DNA of 33,512 nucleotides, taken from contig JBPCWZ010000060.1 of the NCBI GenBank assembly GCA_051009015.1, forward strand, positions 1 to 33,512. Reading direction: 5' to 3'. Shown here piece by piece: positions 10,692 to 33,512 of the stretch (within the stretch, counting starts at the first letter, position 1; each line of letters opens with the position of its first letter). Position numbers and translations under genes: made by a program. Under the pieces are notes generated by a model. That model worked only from the letters and a program-made list of their open reading frames with translations, ran no database searches and was not told where the DNA came from. This stretch comes from Gammaproteobacteria bacterium. GTDB taxonomy: Bacteria; Pseudomonadota; Gammaproteobacteria; Tethybacterales; Persebacteraceae.

Positions 10692-11291
10692 ATGGCGGCA
10701 AGGATAGCGGGCGGCAAATCAAATAATACGGCTTTGCCGCGGCGGCGCGGGAAGTATCGGTGTTTGGTTGTGGACCCGCCGTGGCGGCAGGGAAAGACCG
10801 GCAAGCGTAGCGCGCGCCCGAATCAAGGCGTTACGCTGGATTATCCGACAATGCCGCTTTCGGAAATCAAGGCGTTGCCGGTGCCGGAATGGGCGGCGGA
10901 AGAATCATTTTTGTGGTTGTGGGCGACTAACAGCAAAGACCGCACGACCGGCTTGCCGGTGGTCAAAATGGCGTTTGAGTTGCTGGACCATTGGGGCTAT
11001 ACTTTTCATACCATGCTGACATGGGACAAAAAAACCGGACCTTGCCCGTTCAGCCCGTATCAAATTGTGAGCGAGCATGTTTTGTTTGCATGGCGCGGGG
11101 CGGCGCGTTTTGAGCGGGCACATCTCGGACGGATGAAAACGGTGTTTTCTGAATCGCCCCGCGGGCACAGCGTCAAACCGCAAACTTTATACGAGCATAT
11201 CCGCGCCGCTTTTCCGGGTCCGCGCCTTGATGTTTTCGCCCGCCAAAAGCGGCAGGGTTTTGACGGTTGGGGAAACGAATATGACGGATAG
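10692..11291 (+). CDS. MT-A70-family DNA (adenine-N6) methyltransferase
   Basis: Motifs present: VVDPPW (motif IV), FLWLWATN, MLTWDKK, EHVLFAWRG, HSVKPQTLYEHI and RLDVFARQ...GFDGWGNE, all hallmarks of MT-A70/M.MunI-like enzymes. There are only 9 nt after the ispG stop and no obvious SD. Confidence 0.8.
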   Translation: MAARIAGGKSNNTALPRRRGKYRCLVVDPPWRQGKTGKRSARPNQGVTLDYPTMPLSEIKALPVPEWAAEESFLWLWATNSKDRTTGLPVVKMAFELLDHWGYTFHTMLTWDKKTGPCPFSPYQIVSEHVLFAWRGAARFERAHLGRMKTVFSESPRGHSVKPQTLYEHIRAAFPGPRLDVFARQKRQGFDGWGNEYDG

Positions 11292-12099
11292 TTCCGCCGT
11301 TGCGGTTAAAAAACCCCCGCGCCACAAAACACCGGCGAAGCGAGCCAACTTGCTTTCCGGCTCGCAATGGCTGCAGCATTCTTTCAGCATCTGGCGCGGC
11401 TTGGGCAAAACTTCCGCCGAAAGAAAAATCGGGCATCCGGCGATGTTTCCGGTCAGTTTGGTATCGCGTATTTTGGACGCCTATACCCGTTGCGAAGGCG
11501 TTTTGCTGGACCCTTTTGCCGGTAGCGGGTCGGCGCTTGAAGCGGCGCTGGCAAAAGGGATGGATGTGGTCGGCGTTGACATTAACCGGCACTTTTACGA
11601 TATTTTTAAGGAGCGGGCGGCGCCCCTTTCATCATCGCAATGGTGCTATATTGTCGGCGATGCGCGGCATCTGCGGGCATTGTTGCCACCCGACAGCGCT
11701 GATGTTTGCATAACTTCGCCGCCGTATTGGGATATCCTCAACCGCAAGCGCAGCGCCGATGGCAAAAACGCCCGCTCGTATTCTTCCCTCGCCGACGACA
11801 TGGGCAATGTGAAGTTGTACCGCGAGTTTTTGGATTGTCTGGGGGATGTTTTTGCCGGGGTTCGTTCGGTGCTGAAACCCGGCGCGCCTTTTGTTTTGAA
11901 TGTTGCGGATTTGCGCAAGGGTCCGGTTTTTTACCCCCTGCACATGGATGCCGCCGAGGAAGCGCGGCGACACGGTTTTGTATTGGAGGACATTATTGTT
12001 TGGGACCGGCAATCCGACTATAACAACCAGCGCCCGCTCGGGTATCCGTATAAGTTCATCATCAACAAAGTTCACGAGTATCTTCTCGTGCTGCGCTGA
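11281..12099 (+). CDS. DNA methyltransferase (N4-cytosine or N6-adenine), motif order X/I before IV
   Basis: The track ORF was trimmed to the ATG at 11281, which overlaps the upstream gene by 11 nt. HPAMFPVSL and LLDPFAGSGS (AdoMet binding) precede CITSPPYW (catalytic SPPY). Confidence 0.75.
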   Translation: MTDSSAVAVKKPPRHKTPAKRANLLSGSQWLQHSFSIWRGLGKTSAERKIGHPAMFPVSLVSRILDAYTRCEGVLLDPFAGSGSALEAALAKGMDVVGVDINRHFYDIFKERAAPLSSSQWCYIVGDARHLRALLPPDSADVCITSPPYWDILNRKRSADGKNARSYSSLADDMGNVKLYREFLDCLGDVFAGVRSVLKPGAPFVLNVADLRKGPVFYPLHMDAAEEARRHGFVLEDIIVWDRQSDYNNQRPLGYPYKFIINKVHEYLLVLR

Positions 12100-13121
12100 T
12101 GTCCGGCATTTTGACAAACGCTTCGTTTTGGCGATGGGCGGGTTTTTTGGCAAACCCCGCACGCGCCGCCGACATTCATGCCGAAATGAATCCGGACAAG
12201 AAACAAACATTTGCCGAAGAATACCGCAACCTGACCGGGGTTGTGCTTTCGTTGCCCGGCGACAAAGCGCCGTTTTATGTGTGGAAGCCGGGAAGCAGCA
12301 AATACGGAGTGCAGTTGCGCGTTTATTTTTTCGGCACGATGGGCGCGCACCCGGATGCGGCGGGCTTATTCAACATTACCGATGGGCGGGCGAAAGGCAC
12401 GCTCAGAATCAACAACGGCGAGTTTGTGCGCGGATTGTTTGCGGCGGGTTTTCTCATCGGAAAAAATGCCGACTGCGCCGTCCGCGTGAGGGAGCGGGCG
12501 GGGCAATTCACCGGCGATTTTGACGAAGGTTTCGGCATGATGACCGCGCAAGAGCGCGCGGAATTGCTCGTCAGGGAGGAATGCGCGCAAACCGGCAGCC
12601 GCACTTTTGAGGCGGACACCTTGGTGGAATTGATAAACAAACACGGTGCCCGGGCGGATGAAACCTTGAAGCAATTGTGTGCGCGCGGCGTTTTGCTTGA
12701 AAATAAAAATCATAACGCCTACACGCTTTCGGGCGCGGATATATTGCCCGGCGAGTTGGAAAAAGAATCCGCGGTGCTTGTTGTGCGCGGCGAATCCAAC
12801 GCCGACAAAAGGGAAGTTTTGCTGGAAACCTACGCGCGCAACCGCGGCTGGGTGCGGCTGGCAAAAAAAGTTTTCGGCGAAAAATGCATGTGCCAAAACT
12901 GCAACAATGCCTTCACCAAAAAAGACGGCAAGCCATATATTGAAGTCCATCACATAGTACCTTTGCATAAGGGAGGAGAAGATGGCGTGTGGAATTTGTC
13001 GGTGCTGTGCGCGCATCATCACCGAATGGCGCATTTTGCCCGCGACAAGGACAGGCGGACGATAAGCAGTTATCTGGTGAAAGAAAACCAACGGTTGCGC
13101 GCCGCCGTTATTAAGCCATAA
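12099..13121 (+). CDS. HNH endonuclease with an unrecognised ~240-aa N-terminal region (putative restriction endonuclease)
   Basis: The C-terminus CQNCN...PYIEVHHIVPLHKGGEDGVWNLSVLCAHHHRMAH is a McrA-like HNH motif. Its ATG overlaps the TGA of the preceding methyltransferase (TGATG at 12097-12101). Confidence 0.75.
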   Translation: MSGILTNASFWRWAGFLANPARAADIHAEMNPDKKQTFAEEYRNLTGVVLSLPGDKAPFYVWKPGSSKYGVQLRVYFFGTMGAHPDAAGLFNITDGRAKGTLRINNGEFVRGLFAAGFLIGKNADCAVRVRERAGQFTGDFDEGFGMMTAQERAELLVREECAQTGSRTFEADTLVELINKHGARADETLKQLCARGVLLENKNHNAYTLSGADILPGELEKESAVLVVRGESNADKREVLLETYARNRGWVRLAKKVFGEKCMCQNCNNAFTKKDGKPYIEVHHIVPLHKGGEDGVWNLSVLCAHHHRMAHFARDKDRRTISSYLVKENQRLRAAVIKP

Positions 13122-16634: not shown

Positions 16635-17228
16635 ATGGCGGCGATTATGATTATTCGGTTGCGGGGTGTTGTTGCTGTTTTGGCGGCGATTTTGGTTTTG
16701 GGCGGGTGCGGGCCCGCCGTTGTCGGGGCGGGGGTTGTCGCCGGGGCGGTTGCCAATGACAAGCGGACGCCCGGCTCTTTCGTTGAGGACGAAACCATTG
16801 AGATAAAAACGCGCTATGCCGTGAACAAACAATTCGGCGACAAGGTCAATATCAGCGTTACCAGTTATAACCGCGTTGTGCTGCTCACCGGGCAGGCGGC
16901 GGACGAAAAAATGCGCGCCGAAGTCGTCGCTATCGCCAACAGAATGGACAATGTGCGAAGTGTGCATAACAAGATAGGCATTGGCGGGGCGGCATCCCTG
17001 TCATCGCGCACTTCCGATTCGCTTCTTACCGCCCGCGTAAAGGCAAACTTGTGCGCGCTGCAGACGGAAGGGTTTTCGTGCCTGCCGGTCAAGGTCGTCA
17101 GCGAAAGCGGCGTTGTGTATTTGCTCGGCTTGCTCTCCCGCGAAAATGCCGCTATCGCCGTGCGCGAAGTGCGCAAGATAAAAGGCGTTCTCAAAGTCGT
17201 GCGGGTTTTGCAATACCGCGAAGAATAA
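16635..17228 (+). CDS. dolP: Dual BON-domain outer-membrane lipoprotein (DolP/YraP-like)
   Basis: The signal peptide ends in the lipobox LVLGGC. Two BON-like repeats are present (KTRYAV...VTSYNRVVLLTGQA and TARVKANL...VVSESGVVYLLGLL). The start is ATG 16635 or ATG 16647. The upstream 350 nt of the track ORF overlap the opposite-strand gene and were discarded. Confidence 0.7.
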   Translation: MAAIMIIRLRGVVAVLAAILVLGGCGPAVVGAGVVAGAVANDKRTPGSFVEDETIEIKTRYAVNKQFGDKVNISVTSYNRVVLLTGQAADEKMRAEVVAIANRMDNVRSVHNKIGIGGAASLSSRTSDSLLTARVKANLCALQTEGFSCLPVKVVSESGVVYLLGLLSRENAAIAVREVRKIKGVLKVVRVLQYREE

Positions 17229-17233
17229 CCGCG

Positions 17234-17434
17234 TCAAATCTCGGTCATCTCAAAATCTTCCTTGCGCGCGCCGCATTCGGGGCAAGTCCAGTTTAGCGGA
17301 ATGTCGTGCCATTTTGTCCCCGCTGCTATGCCGTCTTCGGGCGCGCCTTTGTCTTCTTCGTAGATCCAGCCGCATATTTGGCAGATGTAGGTTTTGCCGC
17401 CGCCGGTTGTGGTTGTGTTGTTTTCGCTTGTCAT
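17234..17434 (-). CDS. Rubredoxin
   Basis: CQICGWIYEE ... WTCPECG are two CxxCG knuckles with the typical spacing and aromatic core. Confidence 0.9.
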   Translation of the reverse strand: MTSENNTTTTGGGKTYICQICGWIYEEDKGAPEDGIAAGTKWHDIPLNWTCPECGARKEDFEMTEI

Positions 17435-17451
17435 TACCGCCCCATTCTAAT

Positions 17452-18255
17452 ATGAAAAAAATCGTTGCCGTGTTTGCTTCCATTGACGGCGGCGGCGGCG
17501 CGGGTTTGCTTGCCGATTGCCGCGCCGTTGCCTCCGCCGGTTGCCGCCCGCTGGCGGTTGTGCTTGGCGTCAGCGCGCAGAATTTGGATAACTTTGCCGG
17601 TTTGTGGCAAGTGCCGCCGGGGGTTGTCGGCGCGCAGTTTTCGGCTTTGTCGGGCGCGCCCGTTGCCGCAGTTAAGATTGGAATGCTTGCCGATAATGCC
17701 GCCGCTGTCGGCAGGTGCATCAAACAAATCCGTCAAACCCATCCCGCGCCGGTTGTTTGGGATCCGGTTGTTGCCGCTACCGCGCCGCTTGCGGGGGCGG
17801 CAAAACAACAAAAGCCCAATGCCATCCAAAACGCCCGCCGTCATATTGCCCGTCATGTTTTTGTCGCTACGCCAAACCGCGCCGAGTTGTCGGCATTGAC
17901 CGGCGGCAAAACAATAAGCGAAGGTTTGCGGGTTTTGTTTGCCGATGGCGTGCGCTATGTTTTGATAACCGGCATTGCCGCCGGAAAAGGCAAGTTGCGC
18001 CATTGTTTATATTCCGCCGATAGTGATGTGTGCGCGCCAATATGGGATGTTGTTTGCGAAAGGCGGCGCGGGGTTTTTCATGGCAGCGGCTGTTTGTTTT
18101 CGTCTCTTTTGGCGGCGCATCTGGCGCGCGGCGAATGCCTGACGCAAGCGGCGGGGCGGGCGAATGCCAAAACGCTGGCGGCGATTGACAAAGCCCAAAA
18201 CACAAAGCCGGATATTACAGGATGGGGGCGGCGGCAAAAGATCCTGCCGCAGTGA
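17452..18255 (+). CDS. thiD: Hydroxymethylpyrimidine/phosphomethylpyrimidine kinase
   Basis: The track ORF was trimmed to the ATG at 17452 (MKKIVAVFASIDGGGGAGLLAD, compare the GSDSGGGAGIQAD motif). VKIGML and a C-terminal HGSGC anion-hole motif are present. Confidence 0.75.
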   Translation: MKKIVAVFASIDGGGGAGLLADCRAVASAGCRPLAVVLGVSAQNLDNFAGLWQVPPGVVGAQFSALSGAPVAAVKIGMLADNAAAVGRCIKQIRQTHPAPVVWDPVVAATAPLAGAAKQQKPNAIQNARRHIARHVFVATPNRAELSALTGGKTISEGLRVLFADGVRYVLITGIAAGKGKLRHCLYSADSDVCAPIWDVVCERRRGVFHGSGCLFSSLLAAHLARGECLTQAAGRANAKTLAAIDKAQNTKPDITGWGRRQKILPQ

Positions 18256-18269
18256 TAAAATCGCCGGTA

Positions 18270-19985
18270 ATGCGCCGCATACTTTTGACTTCCGCCCTGC
18301 CCTACGCCAACGGCGACATACACCTCGGCTATCTTCTGGAAGCGGTGCAAGCCGACATTTGGGCGCGGTTTCAGCGCGCGCGCGGAAATGAATGCCTTTA
18401 TGTTTGCGCCGACGACGCGCATGGGACGCCGGTAATGCTGCGGGCTGCCGAAGAAGGCGTGCCGCCGGAGCAGTGGATAGCCAAAATGCGCGATGCCCAT
18501 TGGCGCGATTTGTCCGCCTTTGACATATCAATGGATCATTACGGCAGCACGCATTCCGAGCGCAACCGCGCGTTGTCGGCGGCGATGTACCGCAAACTTC
18601 GCGCGGCGGGGCGCATCGCCGAGCGCGAGATTGAGCAGTTGTATGACCCGCAAAAAAAGATGTTTTTGCCCGACAGGTATGTGCGCGGCGAATGCCCCCG
18701 ATGCGGCGCGGCGCAACAATACGGCGATTCTTGCGAGAAGTGCGGCGGTGTTTATGAAGCGGCGGAACTGAAAAATCCGGTTTCGGTTTTTTCGGGCGCG
18801 GCGCCGGTGATGAAAAAATCTGTGCATTATTTCTTGCGCCTTGCCGATGATTCGGCGTTTTTGCGCGAGTGGGTTTTTGAACATATTGCCGACCCTTCCG
18901 GCGGCGGAAACATCCCGCGCCTGCAAAAAGAAGCGGCGAATAAACTGCAGGAATGGCTTTTGGGCGAGTTGCGCGATTGGGACATATCGCGGGACGCCCC
19001 CTACTTCGGCTTTCGGGTGCCCGATTGCGACGAGGAGAAGTATTTGTATGTTTGGCTGGATGCGCCGGTCGGTTATATGGCGAGTTTTGCCGAGTTGTGC
19101 GCGGGCGAAAACGGCGAAGATGACAAAGCACAACAAGGCGGCTTGTGCTTTGATGATTTTTGGGGGGTGCGGGGGCGGGAGGATACCGAGTTGTATCATT
19201 TCATCGGCAAGGATATATTGTATTTTCATGCTTTGTTCTGGCCCGCGATGTTGAAAAACAGCGGGCATCGTTTGCCGACCCGGGTTTTCGCCCACGGGTT
19301 TTTGACCGTCAATGGCGAGAAGATGTCCAAATCGCGCGGGACTTTTATTACCGCCCGCCGCTATGCCGATTCCGGTTTGCCGCCGGATGCTTTGCGCTAT
19401 TATTATGCGACAAAACTCGGCGACGGCATAGACGACCTGGATTTGCACCTCGGCGATTTTGTGCAAAAAGTCAATGGCGACCTGATAGGCAAACTTGTCA
19501 ATATCCCCAGCCGCACCGCCGGTTTTATCGCCGCCAAGTTTGGCGGCAAACTTGACAATGACGACCAAAGCGGCGAGGGTTATGCCAAAGTTGTCGCGCC
19601 GCTTTTGGCGATGGCGGAATCCGTTGCGGCGGATTTTGAATCGCGCCGTTATCATTCCGCCGTCCGCGCCGTTATGCATGCCGCCGATACGATTAATAGT
19701 TATGTTGATGCCAATGCGCCGTGGAAGATAAAAAATGACGACTCGCAACGGCAAAAACTGCACGAAACTTGTTCGGCGGCATTGCGCGGCTTTCATCTTT
19801 TGACGGTTTATATACAGCCGGTAACGCCGCATTTGGCACAGGCGGCGCGGGCGTTTTTGCAATGCCCGCCGCTTGTTTGGCAGGGGTTGCGCCCGCTTGC
19901 GGCGGGGCATCGCATTGCGCCCTATGCGCATCTGATGGCGCGCATCAAAACCGCCGATGCCCTGATAGAAAAACCGCAACAATGA
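18270..19985 (+). CDS. metG: Methionine--tRNA ligase (short form, no C-terminal tRNA-binding domain)
   Basis: The track ORF was trimmed to the ATG at 18270 (MRRILLTSALPYANGDIHLGY). The Zn knuckles CPRCG...CEKCG and the KMSKS motif are present. Confidence 0.9.
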   Translation: MRRILLTSALPYANGDIHLGYLLEAVQADIWARFQRARGNECLYVCADDAHGTPVMLRAAEEGVPPEQWIAKMRDAHWRDLSAFDISMDHYGSTHSERNRALSAAMYRKLRAAGRIAEREIEQLYDPQKKMFLPDRYVRGECPRCGAAQQYGDSCEKCGGVYEAAELKNPVSVFSGAAPVMKKSVHYFLRLADDSAFLREWVFEHIADPSGGGNIPRLQKEAANKLQEWLLGELRDWDISRDAPYFGFRVPDCDEEKYLYVWLDAPVGYMASFAELCAGENGEDDKAQQGGLCFDDFWGVRGREDTELYHFIGKDILYFHALFWPAMLKNSGHRLPTRVFAHGFLTVNGEKMSKSRGTFITARRYADSGLPPDALRYYYATKLGDGIDDLDLHLGDFVQKVNGDLIGKLVNIPSRTAGFIAAKFGGKLDNDDQSGEGYAKVVAPLLAMAESVAADFESRRYHSAVRAVMHAADTINSYVDANAPWKIKNDDSQRQKLHETCSAALRGFHLLTVYIQPVTPHLAQAARAFLQCPPLVWQGLRPLAAGHRIAPYAHLMARIKTADALIEKPQQ

Positions 19986-20004
19986 CAACGGGAGGCGGAA
20001 TAGT

Positions 20005-20904
20005 ATGCGCGTAGTGTTGTTTGGCGGCGCCGGTTTTATCGGCAGGCATCTGGCGGCGGAACTTGCCGGGGCCGGTCATAGCATCACAGTCATCACCCGC
20101 GACCGCGAATCGGCAAAGCGCGATTTGATACTTCTGCCAAATACCGACGTCATCGCCGCCGATTACAATGCGCCCAATGCCGCATACCGGGCGCTTGCCG
20201 GGGCGGATTCCGCGGTAAATCTCATCGGCATTTTGCACGAGCGGCGGCGCGGGGCTTTTGAGCGAACGCATTGCGAAATGCCCAGATTGCTTGCCGATGC
20301 CTGCGCGGCGGCGGGCGTGCGGCGGTTTGTGCAGTTGAGCGCGCTTGGTGCTTCGCTTTCCGCCCCGAGCGGCTATTTGCGCAGCCGCGCCAAAGGCGAG
20401 CAAATCGCCCGCGACAAGCCGGGCGTTAGCGGCACGATTATCCGCCTGCCGGTGGTTTTTGGCGAGGGCGATTCTTTTATTAATTTGTTTGCCGCTCTTG
20501 CCCGCCATTTGCCTTTTTTGTTTTTGCCGTGCGCGCGGGCGGTAATGCAGCCGGTTGCGGTTGGCGATGTTTCCGCTTTTGTCCGCCGCATACTGGAAGG
20601 CGGCGATTATGACGGGCGGGTGTTGTCTGCCGGCGGTCCCGAAGTTTTCACGCTTGCCGAGATTGTCGGCGCTGTTGCCGATGCCATTGGCAAGCCGCGC
20701 CCTGTCATCCCGCTGGGCAATTCTTCATCGCGCCTTGTCGGGCATTTGGCGGATTGGCTGCCTTTTGTTCATCCTCCTATTAGCGCGGATAACTGCTTGT
20801 CGGCGATGGTGCCGGGGGTTTGCCCGCGCGGCGGCAATGATGCGGCAAAACTGCTTGGCGATTTGACTTCGTTGCGGGCGGGTTTGGCGGCGATGTTCGG
20901 ATAG
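20005..20904 (+). CDS. NAD(P)-binding SDR-family protein (NDUFA9/NmrA-like)
   Basis: It has the N-terminal Rossmann motif VLFGGAGFIGRHL and is 299 aa long. Confidence 0.65.
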   Translation: MRVVLFGGAGFIGRHLAAELAGAGHSITVITRDRESAKRDLILLPNTDVIAADYNAPNAAYRALAGADSAVNLIGILHERRRGAFERTHCEMPRLLADACAAAGVRRFVQLSALGASLSAPSGYLRSRAKGEQIARDKPGVSGTIIRLPVVFGEGDSFINLFAALARHLPFLFLPCARAVMQPVAVGDVSAFVRRILEGGDYDGRVLSAGGPEVFTLAEIVGAVADAIGKPRPVIPLGNSSSRLVGHLADWLPFVHPPISADNCLSAMVPGVCPRGGNDAAKLLGDLTSLRAGLAAMFG

Positions 20905-22170
20905 TTGGCGGCGGTGGATTTGCCAAAAACGGCAAAGGCGTATTTGGTCGGCGGCGCGGTGCGCGACAAGTTGCTCGGCATCGGCGGCGGCGACAGGGAT
21001 TTTGTCGTCATCGGGGCGACTCCGGAACAAATGGGAGCGGCGGGTTTCAAGCCGGTCGGCGGCGATTTTCCGGTTTTTGTACATCCGCAAACGGGCGAGG
21101 AATATGCACTGGCGCGCACCGAGCGCAAAAGCGGGCGCGGCTACCGGGGGTTTGTTTTCCACACCGGCACCGATGTCGGTTTGCATGATGACTTGCAACG
21201 GCGCGATTTGACAATAAACGCCATCGCCGAGGACGAAAACGGCGCATTGACAGATCCTTTCGGCGGCGGGGAAGATATCAAAAGGAAAGTTTTGCGCCAT
21301 GTATCACCGGCTTTTGCCGAGGATCCGGTGCGCATTTTGCGCGCGGCGCGTTTTGCCGCCGCCCTGCCCGGCTTTGCCATCGCCGCCGAAACGACGGCAT
21401 TGATGAAGAAGATGGTGCAAGACGGCGAAGCGGCGCATTTGCGCCCCGAACGGGTTTGGCGCGAGTTAGCGCGCGGATTGGCGACTCCGGCGCCGTCCGT
21501 AATGATAAGGATACTGCACACTTGCGGCGCGCTGCGGGTTGTTTTGCCGGAAGTTGCAGCAATGGACGGCGTGCCGGAAAGGTTGGATTATCATCCGGAG
21601 GGCGATAGTTTTTTGCATACGATGATGGTGCTGGATGCCGCCGCCGCGCGCGGTTGTTCGGCGGCGGAATGTTTTGCCGCATTGTTGCACGATATTGGCA
21701 AGGCGCAAACACCGGCGGCTATTTTGCCGAAACATTACGGGCACGAAGCGCGCAGCGCGGCTTTGGCGCGGCAGGTTTGTACGCGGCTGAAAACGCCGAA
21801 TGCCTTTGCCGACATTGCAGTTTTGACCGCCGCCGAACATGGCAATGTGCATAAGAGCATGGAAATGCGGGCGGCGACGGTTGCCGATTTGCTCGCCCGC
21901 CTTGGCGCCTTCCGGCGGCGGGCTATGATGGAATCGGTCTTGCGCGTTTGCGAGGCGGATTTTTATTATCTGCCCGAACGCAAAGGCGAGGTATATCCGC
22001 AAAGCGGCTTTTTGCGCGCCGCCGCCGATGCCGCCTGCAATATCAACGCGCGGGAGATAGCGAAAAAAACCGGCGGCGACGGCAACAAGATAGCCGATGC
22101 CATTCGCACCGCGCGCATTTGCGCCGTGCGCGAAGTGGTAAAACCGCAAGATACGGATGCCGCCGGATGA
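20905..22170 (+). CDS. cca: Multifunctional CCA-adding enzyme / tRNA nucleotidyltransferase with HD domain
   Basis: Motifs present: YLVGGAVRDKLLG..GGDRDFVV, ARTERKSGRGYRGF, RDLTINA and an HD-domain LLHDIGK. There is no ATG near the N-terminus. The start is TTG 20905 (as in the track) or GTG 20914, so it is uncertain. Confidence 0.85.
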   Translation: MAAVDLPKTAKAYLVGGAVRDKLLGIGGGDRDFVVIGATPEQMGAAGFKPVGGDFPVFVHPQTGEEYALARTERKSGRGYRGFVFHTGTDVGLHDDLQRRDLTINAIAEDENGALTDPFGGGEDIKRKVLRHVSPAFAEDPVRILRAARFAAALPGFAIAAETTALMKKMVQDGEAAHLRPERVWRELARGLATPAPSVMIRILHTCGALRVVLPEVAAMDGVPERLDYHPEGDSFLHTMMVLDAAAARGCSAAECFAALLHDIGKAQTPAAILPKHYGHEARSAALARQVCTRLKTPNAFADIAVLTAAEHGNVHKSMEMRAATVADLLARLGAFRRRAMMESVLRVCEADFYYLPERKGEVYPQSGFLRAAADAACNINAREIAKKTGGDGNKIADAIRTARICAVREVVKPQDTDAAG

Positions 22171-22184
22171 TGACCGAACAACGG

Positions 22185-22255
22185 AGGCGGGAGTCGGAAT
22201 TGAACCGGCGTACACGGCTTTGCAGGCCGCTGCATAACCACTCTGCCATCCCGCC
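22185..22255 (-). tRNA. tRNA-Cys (GCA)
   Basis: The reverse complement reads GGCGGGATGGCAGAGTGGTTATGCAGCGGCCTGCAAAGCCGTGTACGCCGGTTCAATTCCGACTCCCGCCT. It folds with a 7-bp acceptor stem, anticodon loop CUGCAAA, T-loop TTCAATT and discriminator U73. There is one C-A mismatch in the T stem. The 3' flank is CCG, so CCA is not fully encoded. Confidence 0.85.
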
Positions 22256-22287
22256 ATGATTGTCATTTAACCGCTGCGGATAAGTGC

Positions 22288-22363
22288 TGGAGCGGGAAAC
22301 GAGACTTGAACTCGCGACCTCAACCTTGGCAAGGTTGCGCTCTACCAGCTGAGCTATTCCCGC
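22288..22363 (-). tRNA. tRNA-Gly (GCC)
   Basis: The reverse complement reads GCGGGAATAGCTCAGCTGGTAGAGCGCAACCTTGCCAAGGTTGAGGTCGCGAGTTCAAGTCTCGTTTCCCGCTCCA. It is nearly identical in layout to E. coli tRNA-Gly(GCC), and CCA is encoded. Confidence 0.95.
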
Positions 22364-23569: not shown

Positions 23570-23654
23570 TAATGCGGCGGCTGATAGAGTTATAAAATTA
23601 TGGTAAATACGCATATAAATGGCGGCAGTGAATTTATAAGCATATAATTAAAAA

Positions 23655-24731
23655 ATGTTGCGCTTATATAATTTTTTTCCGGGACCTTGCGGTTTGCCCG
23701 ACTCTGTGATGGAGCAAGCGCAGGCGGAATTTTTAGATTATCACGGCAAGGGTGCGTCCATTATGGAAGTGTCGCATCGGGGCGATACTTTTTTGGCGGT
23801 TTATCATCATGCCGAGTCGCTGCTGCGCGAATTGCTTGGCGTCAGTGATGAATATGCTGTTTTATTTTTGTCCGGCGGCGCCAGTGGGCAGTCCGCCGCC
23901 ATCCCGCTCAATCTTACTGCCGATCGCAGCGCCACCGCCGCCTATCTGATCAACGGTCATTGGTCGCAGCGCAGTGCCACGGAGGGCGCTAAGTATTGCC
24001 GCGTCTCGGTTGTCGCCGATACCGCGGATAGCAAATATACCGTCTTGCCGACACAATGGGAAACGCCCGCCGATGCGGTTTATTTGCATTATGCCGATAA
24101 TGAAACCGTTCATGGTGTGGAATTTTCCACCCCGCCAAAGTCCACGGCCCCGCTGGTTGCCGACATGTCTTCTAATATCGCCTCGCGGCAAATTTGCGTG
24201 GAAGATTATGGGCTGATTTATGCCGGGGCGCAAAAAAACCTGGGTCCCACCGGCGTGACTATTGTTATTGTTAAAAAAGCGCTGATGCAAACGCGTCCGA
24301 CAACACCGATGATTTGGGATTATCCCAAGCAAATGGCCGCCGAATCCATGGTTAACACACCGCCCACTTTTCAGATATACATGGTTGGGCTGGTTTTGGC
24401 ATGGCTCAAAGCGGAGGGCGGCGTCGCCGAAATGGAAAAACGCTGCGCGCAAAAATCGCAGTTGCTGTATTCCTGCATTGATAATAGCGGCGGTTTTTAT
24501 CGTGCCTTTGTGTCGGGCGATTGTCGCTCGCGGGTTAATGTGCCGTTCTTTTTGGCTGATGATGCGCTGCTTGGTGATTTTTTGGCCGGTGCCGAACAAG
24601 AAGGGCTCATCGGACTGAAGGGACACGCCATATTGGGCGGCTGTCGCGCCTCTATGTACAATTCCATGGCTGTGGCCGGCGTGGAAAAATTAACCGACTA
24701 CATGCGCGATTTTCAGCGCCGGCGAGGATAA
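23655..24731 (+). CDS. serC: Phosphoserine aminotransferase
   Basis: YNFFPGPCGLP...MEVSHRG aligns with the E. coli SerC N-terminus (FNFSSGPAMLP...MEVSHRG). The GAQKNLGP region contains the PLP lysine. Confidence 0.9.
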   Translation: MLRLYNFFPGPCGLPDSVMEQAQAEFLDYHGKGASIMEVSHRGDTFLAVYHHAESLLRELLGVSDEYAVLFLSGGASGQSAAIPLNLTADRSATAAYLINGHWSQRSATEGAKYCRVSVVADTADSKYTVLPTQWETPADAVYLHYADNETVHGVEFSTPPKSTAPLVADMSSNIASRQICVEDYGLIYAGAQKNLGPTGVTIVIVKKALMQTRPTTPMIWDYPKQMAAESMVNTPPTFQIYMVGLVLAWLKAEGGVAEMEKRCAQKSQLLYSCIDNSGGFYRAFVSGDCRSRVNVPFFLADDALLGDFLAGAEQEGLIGLKGHAILGGCRASMYNSMAVAGVEKLTDYMRDFQRRRG

Positions 24732-24874
24732 GTCGCTGACCAGAGCCGTCTGTCGCCGCTTCGTTTGACCTCAGCATGAGTCGCTTGTCTAAAAATTTTC
24801 ATGGGTATTGATACAGGATACGGATAGTTATTTTTTTATATAATAAATGGGCTTGCTTTATTTTGTGCAATAAA

Positions 24875-24885
24875 AGGAGAAATTG
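24875..24885. repeat. Left copy of the 11-bp direct repeat AGGAGAAATTG (contains the SD of the methyltransferase-HNH gene)
   Basis: An identical 11-mer at 26304-26314 is the SD region of the rhodanese gene. Confidence 0.6.
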
Positions 24886-26181
24886 ATGGGAGCGAAAAAA
24901 TCGCCAATCTTGAATCGGACGCTTTTTACGGGCGATAATTTGGAAATAATGCGGGTGATGAATTCAGAATCGGTGGATTTGATTTATCTTGACCCGCCGT
25001 TCAACAAAAAATATGTCTTTCCGATTGGTAAAGGAGACGCCGCTAAATTTGGTTTCAAGGACGTTTGGGGGTGGGACAGCGCCCCCGATGAAAGCAATCC
25101 CTATTTGCCTTATGCAGAGTTGTATTCATATGCTGAGCTTGTTGCCGCTACGGTGAATGATAATCCGCTCATTGATAAAAAAATGGCGGACAATATTGTT
25201 TCTTTTTTGGATGCCATGGGCAAAATCGCGGGACATTCAGAAATGGCGTATTTATCATTTATGGCGACTCGTTTGGTGGAAATGCGGCGGATTCTTAAGA
25301 AATCGGGCAGCATATATTTGCATTGCGACCCGACCATGTCTCACCCTTTGAAACTGTTGATGGATTGTGTTTTTGGTCAGCAGCAATTTATTAACGAACT
25401 CATTTGGTATTACACCAATGCGTCTCGCGGTAAAAAGCGGTTTGCCAAGTCGCATGATGTGATTTTTTGGTTTAGCAAGTCGCTGCCGCCGCGATTTAAT
25501 AGAGAGAAAATTCTTGCCCCTTTTGCCAGTGGCATGACTCAATGGCGATACACCAAAGGTGGCCAAGTCAGCCAACCAATGCCGCAAGGAAAAACTCCCG
25601 ATGATGTGCTGACCTTGCCCGCTTTGAACGCCATGTCCAAAGAGCGTACCGGCTATCCCACCCAAAAACCGATTGAACTGCTTGAATATATCATCATAAC
25701 TTCGAGCAATGATGGCGATATGGTGTTGGACCCATTTTGCGGGTGTGCGACAACGTGCATAGCTGCCGAAAGATTAAACCGTCAATGGATTGGCATTGAT
25801 GTGGCATCTAATGCGGCGGGGCTTGTGCGCCACCGCTTGCTTGATGAAACCAAGCAAGGCAAAATAGATGATGAAAGAGTGCCGTCAATTATTCATTGCT
25901 CTGCGGATAAAGGGGAATTGCCTATGCGCACCGATATGGGTAAAGCCCGCTCAAAAAACATTCGCAGTATTTTATATGGCAAACAAGCCGGGAATTGCAA
26001 TCTTTGTAAACGCCATTTTGAAATTCGTGATTTTCATATTGACCATATCATTGCACGAAATAAAGGCGGTCCCGATGTAGATGATAACTTGCAACTTCTC
26101 TGCGGTTCTTGCAATGCCATCAAGTCTGATCGAACCATGGAAAAGGCGCGCGAAAGGCTTAAAATGCTGGGGTATATTTAA
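24886..26181 (+). CDS. Beta-class N6/N4 DNA methyltransferase fused to a C-terminal HNH endonuclease domain
   Basis: The ATG at 24886 lies 6 nt after AAGGAGA. Methyltransferase motifs: DLIYLDPPFN (motif IV), SGSIYLHCD, NELIWYY, HDVIFWFSK, YPTQKPIELLEYII and VLDPFCGCATT (motif I). HNH domain: CNLCKRH...HIDHIIARNKGGPDVDDNLQLLCGSCNAIKSD. G+C is lower than in flanking genes; hand counts of single 60-nt lines gave 33-53 percent inside versus 52-55 percent in the flanks. Confidence 0.8.
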   Translation: MGAKKSPILNRTLFTGDNLEIMRVMNSESVDLIYLDPPFNKKYVFPIGKGDAAKFGFKDVWGWDSAPDESNPYLPYAELYSYAELVAATVNDNPLIDKKMADNIVSFLDAMGKIAGHSEMAYLSFMATRLVEMRRILKKSGSIYLHCDPTMSHPLKLLMDCVFGQQQFINELIWYYTNASRGKKRFAKSHDVIFWFSKSLPPRFNREKILAPFASGMTQWRYTKGGQVSQPMPQGKTPDDVLTLPALNAMSKERTGYPTQKPIELLEYIIITSSNDGDMVLDPFCGCATTCIAAERLNRQWIGIDVASNAAGLVRHRLLDETKQGKIDDERVPSIIHCSADKGELPMRTDMGKARSKNIRSILYGKQAGNCNLCKRHFEIRDFHIDHIIARNKGGPDVDDNLQLLCGSCNAIKSDRTMEKARERLKMLGYI

Positions 26182-26303
26182 TCCCCTGTTGCTCGCAAAC
26201 GCTGCCCTACTCGACAACCTGCTCATGGAGTAATCTGTCCGTCCATAATAAGCGTATAATGATTTGACCATAAATGACAGCGCACCATTTGCGCCCTTAC
26301 CGC

Positions 26304-26314
26304 AGGAGAAATTG
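26304..26314. repeat. Right copy of the 11-bp direct repeat AGGAGAAATTG
   Basis: Identical to 24875-24885. It lies 2 nt upstream of the rhodanese ATG (26317). Confidence 0.6.
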
Positions 26315-26316
26315 CC

Positions 26317-26772
26317 ATGTCCATAACCGCGTCACAAGCATTGACCACCGCCGCCCATCGCCAGCAAGAACTTGAACTTTCCTATGCCGGAGCCATGACG
26401 CCAGATGAAGCGTTTGCGGTGCTGCAAGAAAAGCAAGACGCAGTTTTGGTTGATGTGCGTACGGTGCCGGAATTATTGTATGTTGGCCGCGCCCCGGAAG
26501 CGGTGGAAATTCCCTGGCAGGTATATCCGGACATGCAAATTAACAGCGATTTTTTGGATGACTTGCGCCGCCATATTTTGCCAGAACAGCCGGTTTTATT
26601 TTTATGCCGCAGCGGAGTGCGCTCGCATTATGCGGCATCGGCGGCGGCGGCGGTGGGCTATCAGTCCGCGTTTAATGTGCTGGAAGGATTTGAGGGCGAT
26701 TTGGATGACAGCGGTCACCGTGGCAAAATCAATGGCTGGCGCTGTCGTGGGCTGCCGTGGGGGCAGTCTTGA
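26317..26772 (+). CDS. Rhodanese-domain sulfurtransferase
   Basis: LVDVRT..E and the active-site loop LFLCRSGVRS are present. The protein is 151 aa. Confidence 0.8.
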   Translation: MSITASQALTTAAHRQQELELSYAGAMTPDEAFAVLQEKQDAVLVDVRTVPELLYVGRAPEAVEIPWQVYPDMQINSDFLDDLRRHILPEQPVLFLCRSGVRSHYAASAAAAVGYQSAFNVLEGFEGDLDDSGHRGKINGWRCRGLPWGQS

Positions 26773-31734: not shown

Positions 31735-33512
31735 ATGATTTCTGCAAAGCAACAGAGATCCATACATAAGCCATTATTTTGGCTGGCATTTACTTTTGCT
31801 GTTGTTTTTTTGCCGGCAATTTCGGGAGCAACGTCTAAATTATTAGAGTCACCATCTCATCCCATATCATTGCTGTCAGAGACAGAAGTACAATCGCTAA
31901 CAAGTGCTGTGGGTCATCAAAAAAGAGCGGGGCTTGGTATGCTGCCGAGGGCGCGGCCGTATATTGACGCGCCCGCGGCCGCGGTGCTGTTTGATGAGGT
32001 GTGGTCTGAACACGGAATTAATGATTGGCCTAAGATATATTGGGCATCTCGCGAAGTTGGGCCATTGCTGGAGTCGCCCGAGCTGATACAAATCAGGGCG
32101 AAGGCAGAGGAGTTGTCGCCGGCGAAAGAACAAGTATTGGCGACCTTGCGGGTGCATAATATTCAAGTGCGCGGAATTTGGAAAGTATGGGATGGGGAAG
32201 AATCTTTATTTAGGGTGCGAGCGCTAAACGGTGGCGGCGAAGGGGAATTGCTGCGAACGGTAACCTTGTCAGCAAATAAGACTTACCGAGTGACGGTGTC
32301 CGTGGAAGATGATTTTCGTTATTTGAATGAGGATTATCAGAATTTGAGCGTGCAGGCGTTGATTACCATAAAGGTATTGGGGGAGTTGAAGGCGCCGCCG
32401 CTGACGCAGTTGTCGGCGCTGCCGGTGCCGCGGTTGACGGCAACCGCAGGTTATGCGGGAGCGCTGCATAAGCTGCTGGTGTCAGGAGGTCGGCGGCCAT
32501 ATGCCTACACATTATCCTTGGCAGGTTTTTCTGTGTTGGATGGCATATTGTCTTTGTCGGCGGAAACGCCGGCGGGTTTATACACCGTGTCGGTGGGGAT
32601 AAGGGATAGCGGCGAACCGCCGCTTAGGACCATGGCAGAAGTGACGGTGCAAGTATGGGAAGCGCTGAGCGGTGATTTGGCTATTGGTTTTGTGCAGACA
32701 ACTTACGTCGGCGAAAGTGGCATTTTGGGTCGGTTATCCTTAGTGGGCGGCAGCGGGGATTATGGCTATCAGTTAGCGGATGACAGCGGCGGGCAGTTTG
32801 GGGTGGGCGCTGCTGAGGTCAGTGTGATTATGGTATCGGCAGGGGTATATACGCTGTCGGTGATAGTGACGGACCGCATTTTGCCGGCGGCTGCGTGGCC
32901 GCCCGCAACCGTGGTGCTGTCGGTGTGGGTGGAGCCGTCATTGCGGTTATTGTCATTGGTGCCATCAAGCCATATCAGGGTATTGGCAGCGGCGGCAAAA
33001 GATGTGGTGCTGTTGTCGGTGTTGCTGGGAGGTGGGCGGCAATTTGCCGGTGGTGGCTATCAATTTATCCCGCCATCTCCGAATATGCTGGGCTGGTCGG
33101 CACGTGGTCTGGGGATTGAGGGTGCGGCGTTTGAGTTGTCATTGACGGCGGCGCTGGCTGGCGGAGCGCACACGGTGACGGTAATGTTTGCTGATGATTA
33201 TGAGCATACGCAGCCGGGGACGCCGACAGTATCGGTGTTGTTGACGATTGAAGGTTTGCTAAGTTTATCTTCTCAGTCGGCGGGGCGGACCGAGGCAACT
33301 TTGATAGCGAATGTGTCAATGACAAGTATTTATGTCTATCGTGTGGAAGGTGGCGTTGGTGCGCTGAGTTACATTTATCAGGGCGGTCAAGGTTTTGCGG
33401 TGGATTCATCGTCTGGGGTGTTGGCATATGAGGGTGGTGGGGATGCGGGGGTATACACTTTGTCGGTGGTGGTTGATGATGAGTCGGCGTTAGTGCCGCC
33501 GTTGACTTTGAC
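31735..33512 (+). CDS. 5' part of a large secreted/surface repeat protein with Ig- or cadherin-like ~90-107 aa modules (runs off the window)
   Basis: I translated by hand from the ATG at 31735 and found no stop to the window end (592 codons). That explains its absence from the ORF track. The N-terminus MISAKQQRSIHKPLFWLAFTFAVVFLPAISGA looks like a signal peptide. A recurring module signature appears five times: (A)G(V/L)YT(L/V)SV.V.D at about 32581, 32848 and 33454, with variants KTYRVTVSVEDD (32284) and GAHTVTVMFADD (33169). Confidence 0.7.
   Translation, partial: MISAKQQRSIHKPLFWLAFTFAVVFLPAISGATSKLLESPSHPISLLSETEVQSLTSAVGHQKRAGLGMLPRARPYIDAPAAAVLFDEVWSEHGINDWPKIYWASREVGPLLESPELIQIRAKAEELSPAKEQVLATLRVHNIQVRGIWKVWDGEESLFRVRALNGGGEGELLRTVTLSANKTYRVTVSVEDDFRYLNEDYQNLSVQALITIKVLGELKAPPLTQLSALPVPRLTATAGYAGALHKLLVSGGRRPYAYTLSLAGFSVLDGILSLSAETPAGLYTVSVGIRDSGEPPLRTMAEVTVQVWEALSGDLAIGFVQTTYVGESGILGRLSLVGGSGDYGYQLADDSGGQFGVGAAEVSVIMVSAGVYTLSVIVTDRILPAAAWPPATVVLSVWVEPSLRLLSLVPSSHIRVLAAAAKDVVLLSVLLGGGRQFAGGGYQFIPPSPNMLGWSARGLGIEGAAFELSLTAALAGGAHTVTVMFADDYEHTQPGTPTVSVLLTIEGLLSLSSQSAGRTEATLIANVSMTSIYVYRVEGGVGALSYIYQGGQGFAVDSSSGVLAYEGGGDAGVYTLSVVVDDESALVPPLTL

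Follow-up and report, generated by a model that had tools for sequence, protein, structure and literature searches.

The stretch of DNA analysed here (33,512 nt; hereafter, the window) carries, between serC and a rhodanese gene, one gene for a 431-aa protein in which a complete beta-class DNA methyltransferase is followed by an intact HNH nuclease domain. At a probability of roughly 55%, we favour the explanation that this fusion is a single-chain, Type IIC-like restriction-modification (R-M) enzyme whose methylase domain targets both activities, and that its gene behaves as a mobile selfish gene. Type IIC enzymes, by definition, carry R and M in one chain.

Architecture of the fusion protein

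In the list of open reading frames, the gene occupies positions 24883/24886-26181 of the forward strand; translation from the ATG at 24886, which lies 5 nt downstream of the ribosome-binding site AGGAGA, yields the 431-aa product. Together with the Pfam matches and the motif residues, the list confirms the domain composition read from the sequence in the earlier note. The following features are distinguished:

24886-26181, forward strand: methyltransferase-HNH fusion open reading frame, 431 aa, stop codon included (Pfam N6_N4_Mtase and HNH)
24973-25845, forward strand: beta-class DNA methyltransferase domain, aa 30-320 (Pfam, PADLOC, PDB and Foldseek matches; motifs invariant in 84 homologues)
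24991-25002, forward strand: motif IV, DPPF, aa 36-39
25069-25230, forward strand: helical insert between motif IV and the core, aa 62-115, specific to the symbiont clade
25411-25653, forward strand: target-recognition region, aa 176-256, hypervariable in the family and mosaic in the window protein
25654-25671, forward strand: motif X, YPTQKP, aa 257-262
25729-25755, forward strand: motif I, DPFCGCATT, aa 282-290
25846-25995, forward strand: structured linker, aa 321-370, with a P346-x-R348-T-D motif and a pre-HNH helix (SKxIRxxLYGxQxGxC)
25996-26133, forward strand: HNH (beta-beta-alpha-metal) nuclease domain with a Cys4 zinc site (Pfam HNH and HNH_5)

The methyltransferase is matched by Pfam N6_N4_Mtase (PF01555) at aa 30-308 (E = 1.4e-45; 156.4 bits, cut-off 26.7), and the PADLOC profiles MTase_II (4.7e-63) and MTase_III (6.5e-37) also recognize the fusion protein. 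The order of its motifs, IV, recognition region, X and I, is the beta-class permutation. Its closest sequence matches in the PDB are M.BceJIV, M.RsrI, CcrM and M.MboIIA (E = 4e-22 to 1e-14), and the same four enzymes are the top Foldseek matches of the AF2 model (E from ~1e-14 to 3e-16, TMt 0.7-0.79), which has a pLDDT of 87 and a pTM of 0.87. The Asp of motif IV (DPPF) points to N6-adenine rather than N4-cytosine, and the closest relatives are m6A enzymes; by this analogy, the methyltransferase is probably N6-adenine specific. The helical insert, with AF2 helices at 77-91 and 98-115, retains 54-70% identity in P0002-P0026, whereas in the other clade it is 4-17% identical, absent or unalignable.

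The linker, put at about 60 aa in the earlier note, spans ~50 aa between the methyltransferase, which ends at ~aa 320, and the Pfam HNH match, which starts at aa 371. Across homologues its R348 is invariant and P346 nearly so, and the AF2 block pLDDT over aa 321-370 is 85-95. Given the overall confidence of the model, the HNH domain is predicted to be docked rather than floppy. The domain itself is matched by Pfam HNH (PF01844) at aa 371-416 (E = 4.9e-13, 49.4 bits, cut-off 21.4) and HNH_5 (5.6e-09, 36.2 bits, cut-off 27.5), and displays the residues C371-x2-C374, D386-H387 (nt 26041-26046), N401, C406-x2-C409-N410 and K413. Further matches are to IscB (1.4e-09) and Cas9d (6.6e-09) in NCBIfam and to PDB entries 6ME0 and 8D2K. 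Profile searches detected just the methylase and the ~60-aa HNH, and no DNA-binding domain belonging to the HNH module.

Conservation, recognition mosaic and nuclease exchange

The fusion protein belongs to a large family in uncultured marine symbionts; the methyltransferase-HNH architecture is common to more than 100 protein clusters and is frequent in metagenomes. Most family members are publicly annotated as plain 'DNA methyltransferase'. Among 84 aligned homologues (down to ~47% identity), DPPF, PTQKP and DPFxGCA are 100% conserved; C371, C374, D386, N401, C406, C409, N410 and K413 of the HNH are invariant in 84/84, and H387 is retained in 83. Degeneration of the nuclease across homologues, on which the earlier note would have reduced the protein to an orphan methyltransferase, is ruled out by this conservation. 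The fusion is ancient and stable. Moreover, N6_N4_Mtase is present in 64 of the 94 non-tiny representatives of the nearest HNH-module relatives, and many of the short matches are fusion fragments, so that the HNH module is specific to the methylase partnership. A split, two-gene version of the family was not found: the short 'stand-alone' HNH matches are mostly truncated fusions, and L136 contains a methyltransferase plus His-Me pair that, with an SPPY motif and 26% identity, bears no relation to the family.

The recognition region has a history of its own. Compared with its closest scaffold relatives, the window protein is 17-32% identical in this region and 70-82% identical in the rest; compared with a distant clade, the recognition region is 57-75% identical and the rest ~50-65%. 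These opposite identity levels indicate, at the level of sequence comparison, that the window protein carries a recognition region acquired by recombinational swapping. Recombinational swapping of recognition domains is also found in Type I, IIG and III systems (PMC2853133). The nuclease, too, is a modular, exchangeable unit: P0107 and P0099 match the window protein in type of recognition region and in the linker as far as PxRTD, after which T5orf172 takes the place of HNH, and homology between the window protein and the T5orf172 variant (P0107) stops at aa 352.

Genomic contexts, insertion and selection

The fusion gene is flanked by serC (23655-24731) and the rhodanese gene (26317-26772). 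As the earlier note had observed, it is poorer in G+C than its surroundings: 45.1% (GC3 47%) against 55.8% for the window, with six flanking genes at 53-60% (GC3 56-60%). All examined paralogues likewise have a G+C content below that of their host loci. The absence of a partner gene also holds, the list of open reading frames showing no nuclease, specificity or helicase gene next to the fusion. Positions 10692-13121, 12 kb from the fusion gene, contain a three-gene RM-like cluster unrelated to it. The features of the locus are:

24776-26316, no strand: low-G+C islet that takes in the gene, the AT-rich region upstream of it and the spacer that follows (composition profile 40-48%, against 51-60% on either side)
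24875-24885, forward strand: left copy of the exact 11-bp direct repeat AGGAGAAATTG (find repeats, family D16), doubling as the ribosome-binding site of the fusion gene
26304-26314, forward strand: right copy of AGGAGAAATTG, 11 bp, exact, doubling as the ribosome-binding site of the rhodanese gene

In most inspected contexts the fusion gene is solitary, occupying six sites (serC|rhodanese, aroK|serC, hemA|prfA, moaE|LMW-PTP, acpP-fabF|lutA and DUF3800|gltX); at a seventh, a tandem pair adjoins M78-peptidase/DUF4411 genes and a phage portal gene. The host genomes are those of ~2-Mb sponge or cave symbionts, often with several copies each, and one circular 1.98-Mb genome contains at least two. 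Scattered single-gene insertions, which the earlier note had regarded as a sign of selfish mobility, are found, and no integrase or transposase accompanies these low-G+C inserts in the contexts inspected. The fusion is also carried by three viral metagenome contigs and occurs in prophage-like contigs; 72,556 plasmids and 50,697 cultured phage genomes contain methylase-only matches and no full-length fusion.

Insertion polymorphism is seen directly at aroK|serC. The 97%-identical strain L001 has, at the same locus as the window gene, a 98%-identical orthologue (P0001), and in addition a paralogue inserted cleanly between aroK and serC and flanked by an imperfect 11-13-bp direct repeat, where the window has a single-copy empty site (23587-23599). 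Both alleles occur in natural populations, with a loose end at 23599 in run X2 and read-through in X1 and X3. As for the window gene, 0.26% of 5000 shuffles gave the intergenic regions on either side of it a word of at least 11 in common (P ~ 0.01 for flanks of 220 bp), and the 11-bp repeat may represent a target duplication. Flanking direct repeats were rejected as a general signature of the family: at five other loci P ranges from 0.13 to 1.0, and only the window, with an exact repeat, and L001a, with an imperfect one confirmed by the empty site, show them. Inspection of two inserts revealed no similarity between their ends.

No empty site for the window gene was found in a scan of the genome collection with serC, in which the best relatives are 58-66% identical and lack serC-rhodanese synteny, and a JGI metagenome scan with pepP yielded no close relative. 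Among rhodanese homologues, identity falls from 99% straight to 64%. Ca. Persebacteraceae Df01 retains rhodanese-pepP-ubiH with different upstream genes and no fusion gene upstream. Sporadic presence between close relatives is seen for the aroK|serC paralogue, whereas the window gene is present in every related population sampled. Seven runs, from sponges, caves and other host-associated sources, carry the window sequence (X1-X4, X7, X8 and X11); in all of them the window copy is fixed, no contig containing a joint that skips it. Many joints inside the gene (e.g., 25004->25315) were dismissed as deletions, being derived from short contigs of paralogues devoid of the clade-specific insert. Read depth over the fusion gene equals that of its neighbours in four metagenomes; in sponge and cave metagenomes, depth rises in spikes at the conserved motifs, where paralogue contigs also occur. 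The dN/dS of the gene against L001 is 0.16, compared with 0.04-0.21 for flanking genes, indicating purifying selection like that on the housekeeping neighbours. A 212-nt metatranscriptome contig covers 26074-26285; hence, the gene is expressed at least weakly.

Proposed function and relation to known systems

The earlier note had left two readings, a self-contained R-M enzyme and an orphan methylase with a homing HNH. The former is favoured, and mobility survives only as the property that R-M genes commonly have. What favours an R-M enzyme is that the HNH lacks a DNA-binding domain of its own within an ancient, stable fusion; that the recognition region is hypervariable and recombined, with T5orf172 able to replace HNH behind the same region and linker; and that purifying selection acts on the window copy, fixed in its populations, as it does on its neighbours. 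In such an enzyme, the variable recognition region would let the methyltransferase domain bind a short specific DNA sequence, which would be methylated with AdoMet in host DNA; in unmodified, incoming DNA, the HNH, held by the structured linker, would cut at or near the recognized site. Beta-class methylases act as dimers, so two HNH sites might be available and both strands could be broken. Since one recognition module would serve both activities, a swap would change specificity safely, which would explain the many paralogues with different recognition regions. The gene itself would be a small mobile selfish unit entering between housekeeping genes, as other R-M genes do. Several considerations weigh against this reconstruction. 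The argument is carried by analogy, as no characterized beta-methylase plus HNH precedent was found in the papers and databases covered; an HNH domain acting singly usually nicks just one strand, and dimerization is assumed from relatives, while cleavage of unmodified DNA and a role in defence are inferred; a single chain without a controller gene leaves unexplained how a new host is methylated before it is cut; and absence from the plasmids and cultured phages scanned is unusual for a mobile defence gene, although three viral metagenome contigs carry the fusion.

The case for an orphan methyltransferase with a homing or mobility HNH comes from the insertions. Such a nuclease would cut genomes without the gene or with an unmethylated allele, repair would copy the gene in, and the methylase would protect the carrier, so that spread rather than defence would be selected. 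The clean extra paralogue of L001 with its imperfect repeat opposite the empty site in the window, the coexistence of both alleles in nature, the exact 11-bp repeats around the window gene (P ~ 0.003-0.01) and the single-gene, low-G+C inserts free of integrase or transposase all fit, and HNH is a classic homing-endonuclease fold (PMC4081073). However, with so minimal an HNH, devoid of its own DNA-binding domain, targeting must come from a methylase, which reads short motifs rather than one unique homing site. Paralogues sit at unrelated loci, the two inspected inserts share no end similarity, and repeats are not significant at the five other loci; the fusion is ancient with invariant methylase catalysis, and the window copy, fixed in all seven carrying runs with no skipping joint, evolves as a housekeeping gene does. 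Pure homing is thus less likely than an R-M enzyme and, on balance, improbable. A hybrid of the two, with one HNH both restricting foreign DNA and catalysing the insertion of its own gene with no need for an integrase or transposase, we regard as quite unlikely; here the nicks made by the dimer would be staggered by about one helical turn, giving ~11-bp target duplications. The sizes of the putative duplications, exactly 11 bp for the window gene and an imperfect 11-13 bp for the verified paralogue insertion, match that expectation.

Two further explanations dispense with restriction. A housekeeping epigenetic or repair enzyme, pairing the methylase with a strand-specific HNH nickase in a fused Dam/MutH-like logic acting on the unmethylated strand, or serving replication or recombination, would suit a domain that commonly nicks when single and a gene that is fixed, at least weakly expressed, under purifying selection and located among housekeeping genes. 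Several paralogues per genome with unrelated recognition regions, and presence that differs between near-identical strains, fit poorly with a core cellular function; low G+C indicates foreign origin, prophage-like contigs and nuclease-module exchange point to a mobile, modular gene, and Ca. Persebacteraceae Df01 has no such gene upstream of rhodanese-pepP-ubiH. We consider a housekeeping role to have little likelihood. Least probable is an effectively orphan methyltransferase with the HNH as a non-catalytic structural or DNA-binding remnant: against the invariance, in 83-84 of 84 homologues, of the general base His, the preceding Asp, both Asn and the four zinc cysteines stand the bare 'DNA methyltransferase' annotation of most members and the methylase-only phage and plasmid relatives, and replacement by T5orf172, another nuclease fold, argues that nuclease activity is what is selected.

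If the protein is active as proposed, no natural R-M architecture would be smaller or simpler than this single chain of 431 aa, in which one recognition module directs both activities. The fused R-M enzymes, hitherto combinations of PD-(D/E)XK nuclease and gamma-class methylase, would thereby gain a further class. The naturally shuffled recognition regions on a constant scaffold could yield many new specificities for biotechnology, and the family could serve as a model of specificity change without self-killing. Sponge symbionts with reduced genomes are heavily exposed to phages, and the findings bear on how they pack defence into single genes, as well as on the recombinase-free insertion of such genes between housekeeping genes.

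A published or solved single chain of beta-class methylase and HNH was not found in the literature, PDB, PADLOC or NCBIfam, REBASE lying outside the search. The earlier note's statement that fused R-M enzymes join PD-(D/E)XK to a gamma-class methylase agrees with reviews (PMC4081073, PMC2731913, PMC2790908), and its view that the present protein is built differently holds within the limits of the searchable literature and PDB. Type IIC/IIG enzymes (MmeI family, Eco57I/BpuSI, TstI, LlaGI) likewise unite nuclease and methyltransferase in one polypeptide, use a single recognition module for both activities and diversify specificity by domain swapping (PMC2731913, PMC4027205, PMC2853133). Yet these are proteins of 900-1600 aa that begin with a PD-(D/E)XK or Mrr nuclease, have a methylase of the gamma class and recognize DNA through a separate domain, C-terminal or S-like. 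In the 431-aa window protein, by contrast, a beta-class methylase with the recognition region inside it comes first and the HNH last, and PDB and Foldseek searches gave no sequence or structure match to MmeI, BpuSI or LlaGI. For these reasons it falls outside the characterized Type IIC/IIG families, and just the functional class could apply.

The closest solved methylases, M.BceJIV, M.RsrI, CcrM and M.MboIIA (PDB 8URK/9C3S, 1EG2, 6PBD and 1G60), share the fold, the motif order and a D-P-P-aromatic motif IV, but have no nuclease domain and align only to aa ~1-320 (TMq <=0.48); the clade-specific helical insert, structured linker and HNH distinguish the window protein. Type III Mod subunits, with EcoP15I Mod among the structure matches, are also beta-class with an internal recognition region; no Type III Res gene (helicase plus PD-(D/E)XK) lies beside the fusion gene at the window locus or in seven other contexts. 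Beta-class methylase and HNH endonuclease cooperate within one R-M system in Type IIS MboII, MnlI and HpyAV (PMC4081073), and M.MboIIA is among those closest solved relatives; in those systems, however, the nuclease stands apart as a protein that recognizes DNA through a domain of its own, while the window HNH is fused and lacks such a domain. That a single-chain R-M enzyme without PD-(D/E)XK is feasible is shown by the engineered fusion of the Eco29kI GIY-YIG nuclease and methylase, reported as fully functional (PMC3039593), although this artificial construct joins two proteins that each recognize DNA and belong to other nuclease and methylase classes. Free-standing HNH homing endonucleases (I-HmuI, Mob type) have their own sequence-specific DNA-binding modules and a long target, unlike the window HNH. 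Its Cys4-stabilized subtype is that of IscB/Cas9, McrA-type Type IV enzymes and group II intron maturases (PF01844), in which HNH is a cutter without targeting of its own, directed by another module: an RNA guide, a modified-base reader or an intron RNP in those systems and, in the window protein, what would be the methyltransferase.

Domain architecture and conservation of the fusion protein

The gene under study lies on the forward strand and is real: its open reading frame spans 24883/24886-26181, and translation from the ATG at 24886 gives 431 aa; a ribosome-binding site (RBS), AGGAGA, lies 5 nt ahead of this start codon. As the earlier note had described, a complete methylase and an HNH nuclease share this single frame. 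Two Pfam domains score far above their curated cut-offs: a full N6_N4_Mtase at aa 30-308 (E = 1.4e-45) and, at aa 371-416, HNH (E = 4.9e-13). The motifs follow the beta-class permutation, namely DPPF (aa 36-39), YPTQKP (257-262) and DPFCGCATT (282-290), and the HNH domain is intact (C371xxC374, D386-H387, N401, C406xxC409-N410, K413). The inter-domain linker announced in the note is present but measures about 50 rather than 60 aa. The lower G+C content also held up (45.1%, GC3 47%, where the window averages 55.8% and the six neighbouring genes range over 53-60%), as did the lack of a partner gene: serC and the rhodanese gene flank the fusion directly, and nothing resembling restriction-modification (R-M) adjoins it.

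Among solved proteins, sequence similarity is highest to the beta-class m6A methylases M.BceJIV, M.RsrI, CcrM and M.MboIIA; Mod subunits of Type III systems come next, along with N4C enzymes. The HNH part has separate matches to the HNH domains found in Cas9-like proteins and in a group II intron maturase, and NCBIfam relates it to the HNH of IscB and Cas9d. From an alignment of 84 sequences, AlphaFold2 produced a confident model (mean pLDDT 87.2, pTM 0.87; pLDDT 85-95 for linker and HNH). Foldseek comparison against the PDB retrieved only beta-class methylases, covering the N-terminal ~320 residues (TMq ≤ 0.48), and did not find the complete architecture among solved structures.

A search of 5.8 billion proteins yielded at least 8000 candidates; among the best 120 clusters, which we inspected, nearly all are full-length (380-475 aa) and combine N6_N4_Mtase with HNH, and those that are named are annotated just as 'DNA methyltransferase' or 'HNH endonuclease'. 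The diagnostic residues of both active sites are invariant in 84 aligned homologues (47-67% identity), with the single exception of one sequence lacking H387; the degenerate HNH considered in the note, which would leave an orphan methyltransferase, is thus not what the alignment contains. Searched alone across the whole library with HMMER, the linker and HNH matched 403 representative clusters (E ≤ 1e-10). Since N6_N4_Mtase is present in 64 of the 94 non-tiny representatives, and many short matches are visibly truncated fusions still holding the methylase end, this HNH subtype is essentially dedicated to partnership with the methylase. The fusion family is large, but mostly confined to uncultured marine and symbiont genomes.

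Exchange of recognition and nuclease modules

In beta-class enzymes, the segment corresponding to aa 176-256 is the target-recognition region. The closest relatives (P0002-P0026, found in symbiont genomes of ~2 Mb) are 70-82% identical to the window protein in the N-terminus, the core and the motif X-I segments, but just 17-32% identical over aa 176-256, where each of them has its own sequence and length. For a second and more distant clade, identity is ~50-65% over the scaffold and 57-75% over aa 176-256. A region unlike that of near relatives yet like that of a distant clade marks the window protein as a mosaic with a swapped recognition module.

The nuclease is likewise an exchangeable module. 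Four relatives (P0099, P0105, P0107 and P0112) have the methylase and linker in common with the window protein up to PxRTD (query aa 352), after which a T5orf172/MUG113 domain takes the place of HNH; P0107, the T5orf172 member aligned, has the window-type recognition region. A methylase-T5orf172 variant with this region occurs as a solitary gene in a 1.84-Mb cyanobacterial symbiont genome (contigs L124/L125, 5001-6257), adjoining IS1595 and DDE transposase fragments, with Ycf34 and urease genes nearby.

Genomic contexts and insertion polymorphism

The window belongs to an uncultured gammaproteobacterial symbiont whose DNA is present in sponge and cave metagenomes. Marine-cave and sponge MAGs of ~2 Mb, Ca. 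Persebacter sydneyensis among them, have serC genes 58-66% identical to that of the window, and the rhodanese protein of Ca. Persebacteraceae Df01 is 64% identical to its window counterpart. The fusion gene is solitary between housekeeping genes at six gammaproteobacterial sites and forms a tandem pair at a seventh; none of the seven has an adjoining gene for an integrase, transposase, Res, S or helicase.

Gammaproteobacterial sites of the fusion gene
serC / rhodanese gene: window (24886-26181, + strand) and L001, a contig of a 97%-identical strain
aroK / serC: L001 6674-8028
hemA / prfA
moaE / LMW-PTP
acpP-fabF / lutA
DUF3800 / gltX
L126 3620-6221 (1.9-Mb circular genome): tandem paralogues of 400 and 406 aa, beside an M78 peptidase and DUF4411 pair and a phage portal gene

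A circular genome of 1,984,335 bp holds at least two fusion copies, and the G+C content of every copy examined is below that of its host locus. Methylase-only relatives number in the hundreds on viral metagenome contigs, but the fusion occurs in only 3 of the best 80, where it lies at the end of a prophage, amid tail-fibre-like genes, or beside a tape-measure gene and an IS1595 transposase. Searches of 72,556 plasmids and of 50,697 genomes of cultured phages found no full-length fusion.

L001, whose 97% identity to the window applies to the backbone, carries the focal gene at the same place (98% aa identity) and an additional paralogue between aroK and serC, 40% identical and with a different recognition region. 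Promoter-like and hairpin sequences come with this insert, which is bordered by imperfect direct repeats, GAGTTAGAAAATT and GTGTTATAAATTT; window 23587-23599 represents the empty site with a single target, GAGTTATAAAATT. Both alleles are natural: the insert junction at 23599 occurs in one sponge metagenome and the read-through in two cave metagenomes. The scattered single-gene insertions that the note named as support for selfish mobility were found, as solitary low-G+C copies at unrelated loci and as this presence/absence between strains. Directly upstream of the focal gene, L001 also contains a 158-aa SocA/Panacea (antitoxin-domain) gene (9216-9952) that is absent from the window and has window 24776-24836 directly duplicated on its two sides (62 bp). 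This matches a pattern known from R-M genes, 'insertion with long target duplication' (PMC2853133), and the gene may stand to the fusion enzyme as antitoxin to toxin.

The focal gene itself is bordered by an exact 11-bp repeat, AGGAGAAATTG (24875-24885 and 26304-26314), the copies of which double as RBSs of the fusion and rhodanese genes; 0.26% of shuffles gave such a repeat. Five other fusion loci have no significant flanking repeat, and no empty allele of the focal site was found among relatives' genomes, metagenomes and serC/rhodanese homologues. Between window and L001, the gene differs by 9 non-synonymous and 15 synonymous changes (dN/dS 0.16), inside the range of six flanking housekeeping genes (0.04-0.21). 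Its read depth equals that of its neighbours in four metagenomes, with extra spikes only over conserved motifs, where contigs of many paralogues pile up. A 212-nt contig over 26074-26285 in one sponge metatranscriptome is a weak sign of transcription, because DNA carry-over is possible.

Other features of the window and related contigs
Window 10692-13121 (+), between ispG and a MobA-like gene: separate three-gene R-M-like cluster of host-like G+C (~55%), encoding two methylases, MT-A70 (199 aa) and N6_N4 (290 aa), and a 340-aa protein with C-terminal HNH (PADLOC mREase_IV, 4.9e-12; HNH just 27% identical to the focal HNH)
Window 22183-22363 (-): tRNA-Cys(GCA) and tRNA-Gly(GCC), where synteny with L001 breaks off, through a rearrangement or at the edge of an island; genes upstream of this point include one of CCA-adding-enzyme type (PolyA_pol head and HD domains) in the window and Exo_endo_phos in L001
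Window ~31750-33512 (+): apparent start of a very large gene, without Pfam match in the window part at E ≤ 1e-5; the matches on record for the L001 protein (16847-21293, 2576 aa), to cadherin, Kelch and SprB repeats, are all weak or faint
L136 7138-8587 (related symbiont), between an MFS transporter gene and gatC: classical two-gene pair, in which the gene for a beta-class methylase of SPPY type (283 aa) overlaps that for a His-Me finger nuclease (His_Me_b4a2/Endonuclease_7, 202 aa); at 26% identity, not a member of the fusion family

A putative single-chain R-M enzyme and its known counterparts

Of the two readings offered in the earlier note, we favour a self-contained R-M enzyme (probability roughly 0.55), in which the methylase domain would supply sequence recognition for methylation and HNH cleavage alike. 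We infer cleavage itself, adenine specificity (from DPPF) and, by analogy with related beta-class enzymes, which dimerise, a double-strand break made by the two HNH sites of a dimer. Arguing for this reading are the strict conservation of two active sites, a nuclease that has no DNA-binding domain of its own and is interchangeable, shuffled recognition regions, several paralogues of different predicted specificities per small genome, and foreign composition with strain-level gain or loss. These are known R-M properties, notably of fused systems, in which specificity can change safely through a single recognition module (PMC2731913, PMC2853133).

The note's other reading, a homing HNH, would account for both the polymorphic insertion and the short repeats at the flanks, but does not fit the absence of a long-target binding module, unrelated insertion sites, a fusion stable over deep time and a fixed window copy; we regard it as unlikely and prefer to read mobility as the selfishness that R-M genes commonly show. 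That the protein serves a housekeeping role in repair or epigenetic regulation is quite improbable, being contradicted by paralogue number and strain variability, and an inactive HNH, at odds with the conservation of its residues, is hardly credible.

Reviews agree with the note that fused R-M enzymes pair PD-(D/E)XK nucleases with gamma-class methylases; in the characterised ones (MmeI, Eco57I/BpuSI, TstI and LlaGI) the nuclease is PD-(D/E)XK or Mrr (PMC4081073, PMC2731913, PMC2790908, PMC4027205). The window protein differs from these in its beta-class methylase and HNH, and from the HNH restriction enzymes MboII, MnlI, HpyAV and KpnI, which are separate proteins (PMC4081073), in the fusion of HNH to the methylase. 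An engineered GIY-YIG R-M fusion is functional (PMC3039593). A beta-methylase-HNH single chain was not found in the literature, solved structures, or PADLOC or NCBIfam models; within these sources, the architecture is compact and uncharacterised, and its proposed function, R-M, is ordinary.
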